Source of the DNA: Octopus vulgaris
Taxonomy: Eukaryota
Assembly (NCBI GenBank): GCA_951406725.2
Contig: OX597814.1
Span: 15,686,001 to 15,750,000, forward strand
Direction of reading: 5' to 3'
Length of the DNA stretch: 64,000 bases
Both the position numbers and the translations under genes were made by a program. The notes below the pieces were generated by a model. That model was not told the origin of the DNA, did not search any database, and was given only the letters and a program-made list of their open reading frames with translations. Below are positions 3,106-54,507 of this stretch, in pieces; within the stretch, counting starts at the first letter, position 1; the number at the start of each line of letters is the position of its first letter.

Positions 3106-3519
3106 TAACAAAAATTAATATCATGATATTTTACTTTTAAACCATATGTCGCCAATGGGAAATTTGAAAAGTTATGTGATATACATTCATCAAAGGTACC
3201 ATTTTGCTTTTTCATTTATTTTTGAGAGACAGGATTTGTTAGCAAGTCATTGGGTCAACTGAAAGGCAAATATCTTTAAAATTACTCCAGTCTATTTCCA
3301 GTGTAATTGTCTTTTAGGAGACACGGAAATATGTTTGAATGGCCGAGGTCCCCATTACAAACGAATATTTTCTCGAACTCAAGTAGCAAAACTTCTCGAA
3401 AAAAGTCCATAAATTTTCATTAAGTATTATCAATCATCAAGGTGGCATGTCAGAATGTAGTTAATATGAAAGATTCACTAGAGAGTATTCGGGGTAAATT
3501 ACAGCTACCTGGAATAGAA

Positions 3520-21070: not shown

Positions 21071-21360
21071 TGTGGTCACGTGACCGATCAAACTATCAGA
21101 TGTTGCTACACATCACTGGTCACAATGCGCTTCGCATTGTTTTAGCCTTCAAATGACGCCACCCCGCTGGCTAAGCGAGCTAGCCAACAGAAGAAAGAGT
21201 GAGAGAAAGTTGCGGCGAAAGAGTACAGCAGGGATTGCCACCACCCCCTGTCGGAGTTCGTGGAGCTTTAGGTGTTTTCGCTCAGTAAACATTCACACCG
21301 CCCGGTCTGGGAATCGAAACCGCGAGTCCGTTACCCTAACCACTGGACCATTGCGCCTCC

Positions 21361-21362
<2 letters not shown>
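21069..21362 (-). mobile_element. SINE family B, tail type 2
   Basis: Same head; tail cttagccagcggggtggcgtca..ggtcacg, as in 34797-35097. Confidence 0.8.
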
Positions 21363-21412
<50 letters not shown>

Positions 21413-21528
21413 ACCGGAGTAAACACATAAATGTGAAACAAGGTGGAAAAAAAGAGTACTCAAATACCAGTGGTAGAGTAATATGCTTTATTTAAAGCAG
21501 CAGAAAATTCAACAAAATTGAACAAAAC

Positions 21529-21566
21529 CTGTTACTCTGAGTTTCACGTTGCCGTTCATCGGACAG
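21529..21566 (-). ncRNA. Mirror copy of the hammerhead-like motif
   Basis: Exact reverse complement of 21580-21617. Confidence 0.6.
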
Positions 21567-21579
21567 ATTCTAGCAAAAG

Positions 21580-21617
21580 CTGTCCGATGAACGGCAACGT
21601 GAAACTCAGAGTAACAG
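21580..21617 (+). ncRNA. Minimal hammerhead-like ribozyme with CCGAUGA core variant
   Basis: ctgt CCGATGA acg-gcaa-cgt GAAA C tcaga G TA acag. Perfect stem I, stem II closed by a GNRA loop, short stem III. Confidence 0.65.
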
Positions 21618-21667
21618 GTTTTGTTGAATTTTCTGCTGCTTTAAATAAAGTATATATATATGTGTGA

Positions 21668-22051
21668 GTGGAGGCGCAATGGCCCAGTGGTTAGGGCAGC
21701 GGACTCGCGGTCGTAGGATCGCGGTTTCGATTCCCAGGCCGGGCGTTGTGAGTGTTTATTGAGCGAAAACACCTAAAGCTCCACGACGCTCCGGCAGGGA
21801 TGGGGGTGATCCCTGCTGTACTCTTTCACCACAACTTTCTCTCACTCTTACTTCCTGTTTCTGTTGTACCTGTATTTCAAAAGGCCGGCCTTGTCACTCT
21901 CTGTATCACGCTGAATATCCCCGAGAACTGCGTTAAGGGTACACGTGTCTGTAGAGTGCTCAGCCACTTACACGTTAATTTCACGAGCAGGCTGTTCCGT
22001 TGATTCGGATCAACCGGAACCCTCGTCGTCGTAACCGACGGAGTGCTTCCA
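21668..22051 (+). mobile_element. SINE family B, tail type 1
   Basis: Full-length copy. Confidence 0.85.
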
Positions 22052-22452: not shown

Positions 22453-23169
22453 TGGTGTCGGTGGTGATAGAGGGGGATGATGGCGGCAGGTTTTACAGCC
22501 TTGTGCAACCTGGATGTTGTTATCTATGGTGATCTCTTTCAGAGTTGATGCCTGTTGTATAGGTTAATGTTACAATAAACGTTATAGATTCTTCCTACTG
22601 GTTAGTTTCTTCATATCTTCTCAACCCGACCTTAGATTTCAAACATATATAACTGAAAGGAATTCCCACTTTCTCTCTCAGCCTCTTCCCTCTCTCTCTC
22701 TCTCTTTCACTTACTCTCACTTTGTTTTCCTTCATTTTATTTTCTTTCTCATCTACCTCGTTCTCTTTACCTTTCTCTTTCTTATACCCTTTCATTCATT
22801 ACTGTCTTTTTTTTCTCCTTTTCCTTTTGTTTTGCTTTCTACCTCAATTCATCCATCCAATCAGTAAACGATGTGTTTCGGTTTTCCACTAATTTCTATG
22901 AAGCATTGAATGTTTATATAGTGACGTAGACAAAGAAGGAAGTTCAGATACTTTTTAAGAAATGGTCAGCCGAACAAAATCAAACGAAAGCTTAAAATAG
23001 AACGAAACGAAAAGAAAATAAAAACTGATGGAAAAAAATGTCATTGGAATTCAGCCATAAGATTATTCCGGATTGATATGATAAGCAATATTTGAATTTC
23101 TTTTCTTTGTTTATTCCCTATATTTTTCTATACCATTCGTATTTCTTTTTCTTTTCACATTATTGAAAA

Positions 23170-23602
23170 ATGTCAAGATCAAAGCGTAAACGGAGAGCTT
23201 GCTTAAAAGCGTACTGGTGTCTCGGATTGGTTTTACTATGCTTCAAGAAATTATTCATGTTTCTCTTTTCCCACGTTGGTTTAACGGGATGTGTGGTTGG
23301 GTACAGCATTCTGGGAGGATGGATATTTCGAGGACTGGAAGGCAACCATGAACGAGATATCAGAAAACAAGCAGAGAAAATGAGGGAAAAATATACATTG
23401 AAGTTACTAAAGTTTTCAGAAAATGAAGACAGTTTATCTGAAAATGATTTTGAGAATATTACTATTTTAGTTAAGGAATTTGAAGAGGAAATTGTGCACT
23501 TTACAGAATCAACTGGATGGAATGGACTCTATAGTGACAGTGAACTTCAGTGGTCATTTGCTGGTTCTCTGTTATTTTCTGTAACAGTAATTACTACTAT
23601 TG
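23170..23602 (+). CDS. Coding exon (probably first) of a two-pore-domain potassium channel, K2P/TWiK family: TM1, cap, pore helix 1
   Basis: ORF reads LFSHVGLTGCVVGYSILGGWIFRGLEG (TM1), a helical cap, then QWSFAGSLLFSVTVITTIG (P1 pore helix and start of the TIGYG filter). It is followed at once by the donor g|GTAAGT at 23603, phase 1 in the Gly codon. Confidence 0.92.
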
Positions 23603-23743
23603 GTAAGTAAAATCGATGTTTATTTATTTGTTTTGTTTTTTTTTTGTTTCTTTGTATTTTGTATTTTATTTTTGTGTGTGTGTGTGGTTTATGGCACTTG
23701 TAAATATAATGATTCAAAACTTTCAAAAATTGTCATTGTGTGT

Positions 23744-33270: not shown

Positions 33271-33316
33271 GACCCCTGATGAAGGCTGAAGGGAATATCA
33301 GCCGAAACGTTGTGTT
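33271..33316 (+). ncRNA. Hammerhead-like variant lacking stem III, in a Penelope-type repeat fragment
   Basis: gaccc CTGATGA a ggctga..tcagcc GAAACGTT gtgtt. A homologous copy lies on the minus strand at 56594-56639 (gacac CTGATGA..GAAATGTT gcgtt). Confidence 0.5.
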
Positions 33317-52737: not shown

Positions 52738-52793
<56 letters not shown>

Positions 52794-52813
52794 GTTACAT
52801 TACTCGGTAGTCA

Positions 52814-52876
52814 AGATAAAACTCTGAGTTTCAGATGCCGAAGTGGAAATCCACAACACCATCTCTTCGGTTATCT
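52814..52876 (-). ncRNA. Inverted-pLTR copy of the hammerhead-like motif
   Basis: Reverse complement of 54022-54084. Confidence 0.55.
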
Positions 52877-53204
52877 GGCTATTTGAAAACGTTATGAAAA
52901 AATACCGTTAAAAATGAAGGGAAATTACTCTGTTATAACTCTGCTTTGCCTGCGTACTTATACATCGCTCGCATTTTTCGTCATAAAAATTATATAAAAA
53001 TACATAAAAATATATAAAATATATAAAAATATATAAAATCTTCTTGGGACATAACACAGAAAGCATGTTCTATCCGTTTTCTTTAGGGGACCAAAAATGT
53101 AACAGAAATTTAGTCACATGTGGGCATGATCCGAAAAGCTCTGTCCTTGTATTTAGACATGTGGTAGGGTCTAAGCTGCTTTTCCAGATAAGCCATCAAT
53201 ATAG

Positions 53205-53837
53205 GTGGCCTTCAATATAGGTAAATATTTCCTAGCACTGATAGATAGACATTTTCCAGTTAACCATGCTTATAGGAAACTCTTCAATAGACACAATTTA
53301 AAAATTAGTTTTAGTTCAACTACCAATTTTAAAAACATAATCAATCATAACATACAAAAAACACAAGAAGAAAACAGCTATTCATGCAGGAATAAAGAAT
53401 TGTGCCCGCTAAATGGACCTTGCATGTCCAAGACCATCATATATGAAGCTACCGTAAACTCTATAACCACTAAAGACACCGTTTCGACGAAGAAATACGT
53501 GGGCCTGACAGAGGGTAATTTCAAGGCCAGGTTCAATAACCACACTTTGAGCTTTAGGCACTGGAACAAAAGAAAAGCGACACAATTATCCAATCATATT
53601 TGGTCTTTAAGAGATAAAGGTGTCGATTATAACATACAATGGAAGATTTTGGCCAGATGTAAGCCCTATACTAACGGCAGCGGAAGGTGCGGTTTATGCG
53701 ACATGGAGAGATGGCTTATCTGGAAAAGCAGCTTAGACCCTACCACATGTCTAAATACAAGGACAGAGCTTTTCGGATCATGCCCACATGTGACTAAATT
53801 TCTGTTACGTTTTTGGTCCCCTAAAGAAAACGGATAG
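53205..53837 (+). CDS. Penelope-like GIY-YIG endonuclease domain (truncated ORF)
   Basis: CRNKELCPLNGPC, IIYEATV..KYVGLTEGNFKARFNNH, TQLSNHIW, CGLCDME, LNTRTELFGSCPH. Confidence 0.88.
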   Translation: MAFNIGKYFLALIDRHFPVNHAYRKLFNRHNLKISFSSTTNFKNIINHNIQKTQEENSYSCRNKELCPLNGPCMSKTIIYEATVNSITTKDTVSTKKYVGLTEGNFKARFNNHTLSFRHWNKRKATQLSNHIWSLRDKGVDYNIQWKILARCKPYTNGSGRCGLCDMERWLIWKSSLDPTTCLNTRTELFGSCPHVTKFLLRFWSPKENG

Positions 53838-54021
53838 AACATGCTTTCTGTGTTATGTCCCAAGAAGATTTTATATATTTTTATATATTTTTATGTATTT
53901 TTATATAATTTTTATGACGAAAAATGCGAGCGATGTATAAGTACGCAGGCAAAGCAGAGTTATAACAGAGTAATTTCCCTTCATTTTTAACGGTATTTTT
54001 TCATAACGTTTCCAAATAGCC

Positions 54022-54084
54022 AGATAACCGAAGAGATGGTGTTGTGGATTTCCACTTCGGCATCTGAAACTCAGAGTTTTATCT
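54022..54084 (+). ncRNA. Hammerhead-like motif in the Penelope pLTR (CCGAAGA variant)
   Basis: agataa CCGAAGA gatg..catc t GAAA C tcaga G TT ttatct. Stem I agataa/ttatct; one extra base before GAAA. Confidence 0.6.
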
Positions 54085-54182
54085 TGACTACCGAGTAATG
54101 TAACATATTGTATAGATAAATTTCCTCTATTTACATAATATTGAGGTCTCTTTCTTTCTTTTGTTATCTTACCGTTTTATCA

Positions 54183-54254: not shown

Positions 54255-54507
54255 TGATAAAAACGGTAAGACAACAAAAGAAAGAAAGAGACCTCAATAT
54301 TATGTAAATAGAGGAATTTATCTGTAAATGTAATATGTGACAATTATTAGGTAGCCATGATAAAACTCCGAGTTCTGGATGCCGAGGTGGATTTTTTCAT
54401 AGCATTTTTCCGATGGCCGGATAAATGAAGAGATCGCGGCGTAGTTTTCCACCTCGGCATCCGAAACTCGGAGCTTTATCATGGCTACCGAATAATTGTC
54501 TCATATT
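54255..54507 (-). mobile_element. Second, diverged Penelope pLTR fragment, tail-to-tail with the previous element, with its own short fold-back
   Basis: 54255-54325 is a near reverse complement of 54113-54185. Segments 54335-54391 and 54447-54507 are inverted copies of each other. Confidence 0.75.

Follow-up and report, generated by a model that had tools for sequence, protein, structure and literature searches.

What purpose, if any, is served by a palindrome that carries a hammerhead ribozyme motif on each of its strands and lies close to an ion channel-like exon? The palindrome lies in a 64,000-nucleotide stretch of Octopus vulgaris DNA (GenBank assembly GCA_951406725.2, contig OX597814.1, positions 15,686,001 to 15,750,000), here called the window. 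The original prediction, made from the letters of the window, described twin ribozymes with an unusual CCGA core and proposed that the hairpin is a built-in off switch. We searched the genome (2.8 Gb in 227 contigs) for related sequences, and definitions were taken from a review (PMC6765202) and a preprint on retrozymes (bioRxiv 10.64898/2026.07.22.740005). The explanation that accounts best for the whole, and that we hold to be very probable, is that the palindrome is a by-product of head-to-head insertion, that its ribozyme is likely permanently inactive at this site, and that CCGA is an inherited, tolerated U4C state.

Sequence comparison within the window bore out the near-perfect inverted repeat with its 13-nt spacer, and the letters proposed for each motif were found in both arms (Table 1). 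The element reaches 72 nt further left than had been recognized, and as a whole spans 21414-21650. Stem I and the GCAA loop are as described. However, stem II has just 2 to 3 bp, and stem III is an interrupted palindrome. The spacer has the length given, but it is the element's own upstream sequence, and folding predictions pair it with 21618-21629. Head-to-head repeats at 21186-21379 and 21651-21859, 82% alike, flank the palindrome and form a larger imperfect inverted repeat around it. We take them to be a tRNA-like SINE; there is a weak Rfam tRNA match at 21673.

Table 1. Coordinates of the palindrome, its flanks and the longer inverted insertion in the window
Feature	Position	Strand	Basis
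(TA)n target microsatellite, left side	21362..21413	.	sequence; (TA)n flanks also in other copies
PLE tail, ~72 nt from the start of the following tandem unit, on one arm only	21414..21485	-	matches bases 1-75 of the 3,365-bp unit at 97%
Inverted arm, element 3' end with hammerhead motif; 10-nt duplication near 21511-21520	21486..21566	-	
Minus-strand hammerhead	stem I 5' strand 21566-21563; core 21562-21556; predicted cut 21533/21532	-	
Spacer, part of the element that lies 5' of the plus-strand hammerhead; 5' strand of predicted extended stem I	21567..21579	+	
Inversion junction	left edge of 21567..21579		
Plus-strand arm of the inverted repeat	21580..21650	+	sequence comparison
Minimal type I hammerhead motif, laid out like Hydra-clade motifs in the literature	21580..21617	+	
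Plus-strand hammerhead: 4-bp stem I; CCGAUGA core (U4C); 2-3 bp stem II with GCAA loop	core 21584-21590	+	
Plus-strand hammerhead: palindromic stem III and predicted cut	stem III 21604-21612; cut 21613/21614	+	
Remaining element 3' end: extended stem I 3' strand (to ~21629) and terminal AATAAAG	21618..21650	+	
(TA)n target microsatellite, right side	21651..21660	.	sequence
Family 2 (second Hydra-type PLE family), longer inverted insertion	52777..54121	.	
Family 2 CCGAAGA hammerheads	54028-54078 (+), 52870-52820 (-)		
Family 2 endonuclease-coding fragment	53205-53801		

The inverted repeat is not a product of chance, because none of 200 shuffles folded as well as the 246-nt stretch (-135.9 kcal/mol, z -19.2), and because a reversed-pattern control for the motif gave 0 matches against 1,467 real ones. 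The 38-mer behaves differently as a monomer. Its hammerhead fold is worth just -1.0 kcal/mol, its minimum free energy is no better than that of shuffles (z 0.37), and with the extended stem I it reaches -12.6 kcal/mol. Rfam gave no match in the window at gathering thresholds. The hammerhead model was absent among 36 weak matches below threshold, which were generic hairpin matches. A microRNA precursor family was rejected on the same ground, with a best score of 49.1 bits against a gathering threshold of 90.

An intact copy elsewhere in the genome revealed the parent element, which we call family 1. Its unit is 3,365 bp long and has a 727-aa reverse transcriptase (RT)-endonuclease open reading frame (ORF). 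The plus arm in the window corresponds to unit bases 3282-3365, and the minus arm to 3292-3365 followed by bases 1-75 of the next unit. Its sequence identifies the palindrome as a Hydra-clade Penelope-like element (PLE) that was inserted into a (TA)n run head-to-head and with extreme 5' truncation, the clade being assigned by motifs. The suggestion of a Penelope-like origin, with inverted pLTR copies and a minimal type I hammerhead, is supported. The arms are the ends of an ORF-bearing element. Intact units also occur in tandem and inverted arrangement at one locus (L091), where inverted copies are 99.8% alike, and this arrangement with a one-sided tail was found at loci L091, L097 and L100. 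The copies examined start and end with the same bases inside (TA)n, as at the flanks in the window.

A Pfam search gave no family for the 727-aa protein. It carries YRDD at 360 and GVVY/YTG at 596/614, as in a C-terminal GIY-YIG domain. RWK, DKT, CxCX5C, CxxC and CxH are present both in this protein and in that of family 2. These are the marks given for the Hydra clade by Craig et al. 2021 (PMC8557442), with DKG changed to DKT and CxCX5C as a linker. PLE features reported in that paper include (TA)n targets, copies that are inverted and cut short at the 5' end, and tails at one end. Its Hydra-clade elements, among them Hydra-1_Obim, Hydra-2_aMil and Penelope-13_HM, resemble family 1 in having an RT with a C-terminal GIY-YIG-like domain and the RWK, DKT and CxCX5C marks, in a (TA)n target with an inverted 5'-truncated copy and one-sided tail, and in a hammerhead with a 4-bp stem I and an ACUC-N-GAGU stem III; the stem I of Hydra-2_aMil is identical. 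Family 1 differs in its 2-3 bp stem II and in a tail of about 72 nt rather than 30 to 40. Its unit of 3,365 bp and the family 2 period of about 2,580 bp compare with a typical Hydra length of "<3 kb". Compared by eye, Hydra-1_Obim is unlike families 1 and 2 in its printed hammerhead and N terminus; a close relative of its hammerhead, also judged by eye, is among the CTGAAGA matches listed. Just left of the window (L101:3751-6180), a 2.2-kb inverted repeat encloses an open frame of 810 aa that matches RVT_1 and GIY-YIG; judged by its sequence, this element is a PLE of another clade.

A gapped pattern with arms no more than 30 nt apart found 1,067 twin-hammerhead palindromes genome-wide. Among the first 50 of these, 39 have CUGA in both arms, 10 have CCGA in both and 1 is mixed, and the spacers measure 6 to 29 nt. 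The same inverted geometry recurs with arms of 1.1 to 3.5 kb in 7 of 10 larger loci, as well as in family 2 and in older families. Inverted copies with hammerheads on opposite strands are already published PLE anatomy. Cervera and De la Pena 2014 (PMC4209133) reported dual motifs on opposite strands in metazoan PLEs, with single motifs inactive and dimers weakly active. Their minimal type I hammerheads share with ours the palindromic stem III, the lack of evident loop-loop contact and the many truncated copies. However, their dual motifs lie about 100 to 700 bp apart, and those of the octopus palindrome 13 nt.

So many short palindromes could also form a non-autonomous family whose 240-bp unit is copied as a whole, in the manner of a MITE or a retrozyme. 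A spacer of 16 nt is modal (23 of the first 50), and a 241-bp query, for which 40 of 1,111 candidates were scored, had short palindromes 90 to 100% like itself at all of its best 30 scoring loci, although these were chosen for likeness. However, spacers of 16 nt come in several different sequences and are found in both subfamilies, alongside spacers of other lengths. The ends are asymmetric, with one tail, and are not terminal inverted repeats. Non-LTR retrozymes (bioRxiv 10.64898/2026.07.22.740005) are likewise short, non-coding, PLE-related sequences with a type I hammerhead. Yet they are described as head-to-tail tandems in which each monomer has a hammerhead, whereas the octopus locus is head-to-head with a single copy per strand, and no tandem same-sense monomers of that kind were found. 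We consider a palindromic family very unlikely.

We suggest instead that each palindrome arises anew at insertion. Both nicked target strands would likely prime reverse transcription within the (TA)n run. Two RT starts, one at the tail end and one at AATAAAG, as inferred from Anolis PLE biochemistry, would give the one-sided tail, and two short cDNAs joined just upstream of the hammerhead motif would leave a head-to-head double copy. In the Anolis PLE, both strands are nicked and extended, and two internal RT starts bound the tail (Frangieh 2024, PMC11167929). In octopus, 5' ends gather in the 14 nt upstream of stem I at 17 of 30 consecutive CCGA sites and at 17 of 30 CUGA sites. This hot spot (21567-21579 in the window) is sharp in both solo and inverted copies, and it falls on the 5' strand of the stem I extension that folding predicts. 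Simple microhomology fails to explain it, because the hot-spot site self-anneals more weakly than stem III (-3.8 versus -7.8 kcal/mol) and yet accounts for 1,067 junctions against 167. The sharpness with which cDNAs end at the extended stem I offers a clue to PLE integration. We also considered whether truncation where the ribozyme should cut is a sign of cutting in vivo, and rejected this. There was no clear pile-up, and among the first 50 of the 167 junctions, inspected by eye, many were centred on the stem III palindrome.

The joining step could differ. A single tail-primed cDNA might stall past the extended stem I, fold back and copy itself to AATAAAG, and then jump to the other (TA)n end. 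The position of the hot spot fits such a stall, some junctions swap the 5' strand of the extended stem I for the exact complement of its 3' strand (L049), and the core state agrees between the arms in 49 of the first 50 palindromes. However, solo copies truncate at the same site without inversion (4/17 and 15/31 short CCGA arms), kilobase inversions with asymmetric arms fit two primed cDNAs, and priming from both strands has been demonstrated in vitro for another PLE (PMC11167929). The junction data fit both routes and do not separate them. We regard fold-back as the less probable one, though with a real chance of being right; it would alter the joining step only, and the palindrome would still be a by-product.

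We then consider whether the antisense arm is kept to silence the ribozyme, and thereby regulates the element or the neighbouring two-pore potassium channel (K2P) gene. As had been pointed out, antisense does come before sense in transcripts of either direction; the hairpin dominates, tight palindromes are common, and a K2P-like start codon is 1.5 kb away. The hairpin at -135.9 kcal/mol dwarfs the hammerhead folds, and therefore read-through RNA has one state. It is predicted to form a 71-bp hairpin, in which the ribozyme is likely always off and not switched. The idea of a built-in switch is not supported, since there is no "on" state in read-through RNA. The locus is also 1 of 1,067 palindromes, whose junctions vary and which belong to CCGA and CUGA subfamilies alike; the inversion recurs at kilobase scale and in other families; and inverted copies are standard PLE products (PMC8557442). 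In addition, the motif is of the dimer-dependent type, so that a single copy would be expected to be inactive in any case. In an intact element, two same-sense copies of the hammerhead are expected to act together as a dimer, paired through the palindromic stem III and possibly helped by protein. The stem III duplex between two such copies is predicted at -7.4 kcal/mol, and in this model an opposite-strand copy cannot supply the partner. We find a regulatory off switch scarcely credible, and the insertion by-product is the reading that we retain.

The first coding exon of a K2P-like gene occupies 23167-23607, with its ATG at 23170, 1.5 kb downstream of the palindrome, and ends at a GT donor. 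Its Pfam match to Ion_trans_2 has an E value of 0.0013, which is below the curated cut-off, and the exon had no cover by four runs whose RNA label is a guess. Nothing beyond distance links the insertion to this gene.

The core of the motif raises a separate question. With the consensus C3-U4-G5-A6-N7-G8-A9, G12-A13-A14-A15.1 and U16.1-H17, all positions are present except U4, which is C. Exact 20-mers genome-wide number 1,467 for CCGA and 3,912 for CUGA, and the controls gave 0. Decay from CUGA to CCGA at the window locus is ruled out by the 1,467 exact copies. The view of CCGA as a family trait rather than decay is supported by these copies, by full-length CCGA elements and by intact family 2 ORFs. 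A prevailing CUGA consensus, or stems without covariation, had been named as evidence to the contrary. The first of these holds in part, since CUGA does outnumber CCGA in family 1. Stems with different sequences are kept paired across families. Full-length CCGA copies in family 1 (L211, L212 and L222; 3 of 20 long loci) are frameshifted, and they rule out a non-autonomous CCGA subfamily.

CCGA copies are older than CUGA copies, since their mean pairwise difference is larger (3.4% among 67/70 arms versus 0.7% among 29/30 arms). In an older sister family, picked by its CCGA pattern, unselected partner arms read by eye had CCG in 6, CCA in 3 and CTG in 0 of 14 loci. The CCA arms look like CpG decay of CCG. 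A tree of 47 of 88 tailed arms separated family 1 from this sister family with 100/100 support, and its inner branching was without support. Because this outgroup has CCG or CCA and no CTG, the CUGA of young family 1 is likely a reversion. Across 212 family 1 arms, enriched for CCGA by the search, core variation is frequent at U4/C4, N7 and 11.1 only. This confinement argues for continuing constraint on the motif. Position 10.1 is A in 211 of the 212 arms, and 11.1 is G, T, A or C in 104, 54, 45 and 9. Family 1 thus lacks the G10.1-C11.1 pair typical of the base of stem II in minimal type I hammerheads, and because position 11.1 varies, its stem II has just 2 to 3 bp.

The same change had been reported in a different element at 54028, and the CCGAAGA core was found there with an inverted partner (Table 1). 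The CCGAAGA pattern matched 4,913 times against 801 in the control, and family 2 accounted for 88 of the first 100 matches listed. Intact relatives (L161 and L162) have 717-aa ORFs in 99.7% identical tandems with CCGA. The tandem array at L161 (G000:C1:57208000-57217500), with a 2,580-bp period, carries YKDD in its RT active site in place of YRDD. Of 100 listed members of an older family 2 subfamily, 84 have CTG, 4 have CCG and none has CCA, which rules out CpG decay as the source of their CUGA, and the stem II of young family 2 is in none of the first 100 CTGAAGA matches listed. In family 2, CCGA marks the young subfamily, with intact ORFs, and CUGA an older one. A further CCGA-family pattern gave 862 matches against 389 in the control, and a pattern for family 3, which was too tight, gave 5. 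Stem I pairs of 3 to 12 bp, different in sequence, are kept in representatives of families 1, 2, 3, 5 and 6, and the palindromic stem III has 4/4 self-pairs in every family representative examined. At least five hammerhead families carry CCGA, with changes that apparently went in both directions. At 54420-54500, an older family 2 relative has a damaged core (AUGAAGA) and an intact palindromic stem III at 54463.

U4C has precedent. It considerably lowers activity in vitro and keeps enough activity in vivo for viroid infectivity (Ambros and Flores 1998, as cited in Perreault 2011, PMC3088659); the latter also notes that 2-bp stems II occur. The viroid variant has the same core substitution, tolerated at reduced activity. 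In octopus, by contrast, U4C has become fixed in subfamilies of autonomous retrotransposons, in thousands of copies, and it is present in several families. A 2026 survey (PMC13481778) uses CYGANGA as its core descriptor; the family 1 core fits CYGANGA, and does not fit CUGANGA. The Hydra rows of the table of Craig et al. have CUGA in 26 of 26, in contrast to octopus families in which CCGA is common. The core variant reported by Cervera and De la Pena is U3-A8, not U4C, and one supplement of that paper has CUGA 58 times and CCGA twice, both outside the core. We found no report in the literature of CCGA cores fixed in PLE families, although Lunse et al. 2017 may already list U4C. The window locus itself is ordinary transposon debris, a usual PLE insertion, and the CCGA core is modestly new as a variant fixed in PLE families.

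CCGA motifs may not cleave at all, because single mutants in the CUGA region are of low activity (Roberts 2023, PMC9901934). They could then be dead ribozymes, in which U4C abolishes cleavage and drifts since the hammerhead is dispensable. The lowered activity of U4C in vitro is in line with this, as is the finding that hammerhead catalytic mutants of the Anolis PLE still insert in vitro, with a ribozyme that needs protein (PMC11167929). However, the other core positions and the stem pairings are kept across families, and without constraint we would expect erosion at the subfamily level. Viroid infectivity on U4C and the appearance of CYGANGA in print point the same way. We think it rather doubtful that these ribozymes are dead. 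Under the reading that we prefer, a tolerated core, U4C likely makes cleavage weaker while still permitting transposition.

What PLE hammerheads do is an unsettled question (PMC8557442, PMC11167929), and thousands of young octopus copies with intact ORFs sit on a core known to cut poorly. Sister subfamilies that differ at U4 in both directions provide matched natural pairs for cleavage and transposition assays. One further signal bears on the cleavage site. At L091:5191-5192, which are A17 and A1.1 of a family 1 hammerhead, A>G made up 7 to 11% of contig depth in three runs from three studies whose RNA label is guessed; for A17, run X15 gave 0.01%, and none of the 212 genomic arms had it. Coming from contigs of a multicopy repeat under that guessed label, this is a weak hint of A-to-I editing of the cleavage-site base. 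It is conceivable, though in our view improbable, that octopus-type Hydra PLEs repeatedly tune their hammerhead down instead of losing it, with U4 flipping between U and C independently and with the host editing A17 to inosine in a tenth of transcripts. The U4 switches would then run from U to C in young, ORF-intact family 2, and from C back to U in young family 1. If this is true, these elements form a natural series in which the purpose of PLE hammerheads could be studied. Searches restricted to CUGA miss thousands of motifs in the octopus genome. A canonical CUGAUGA...GAAAC motif, from a different repeat family, lies in the window at 33276-33308.
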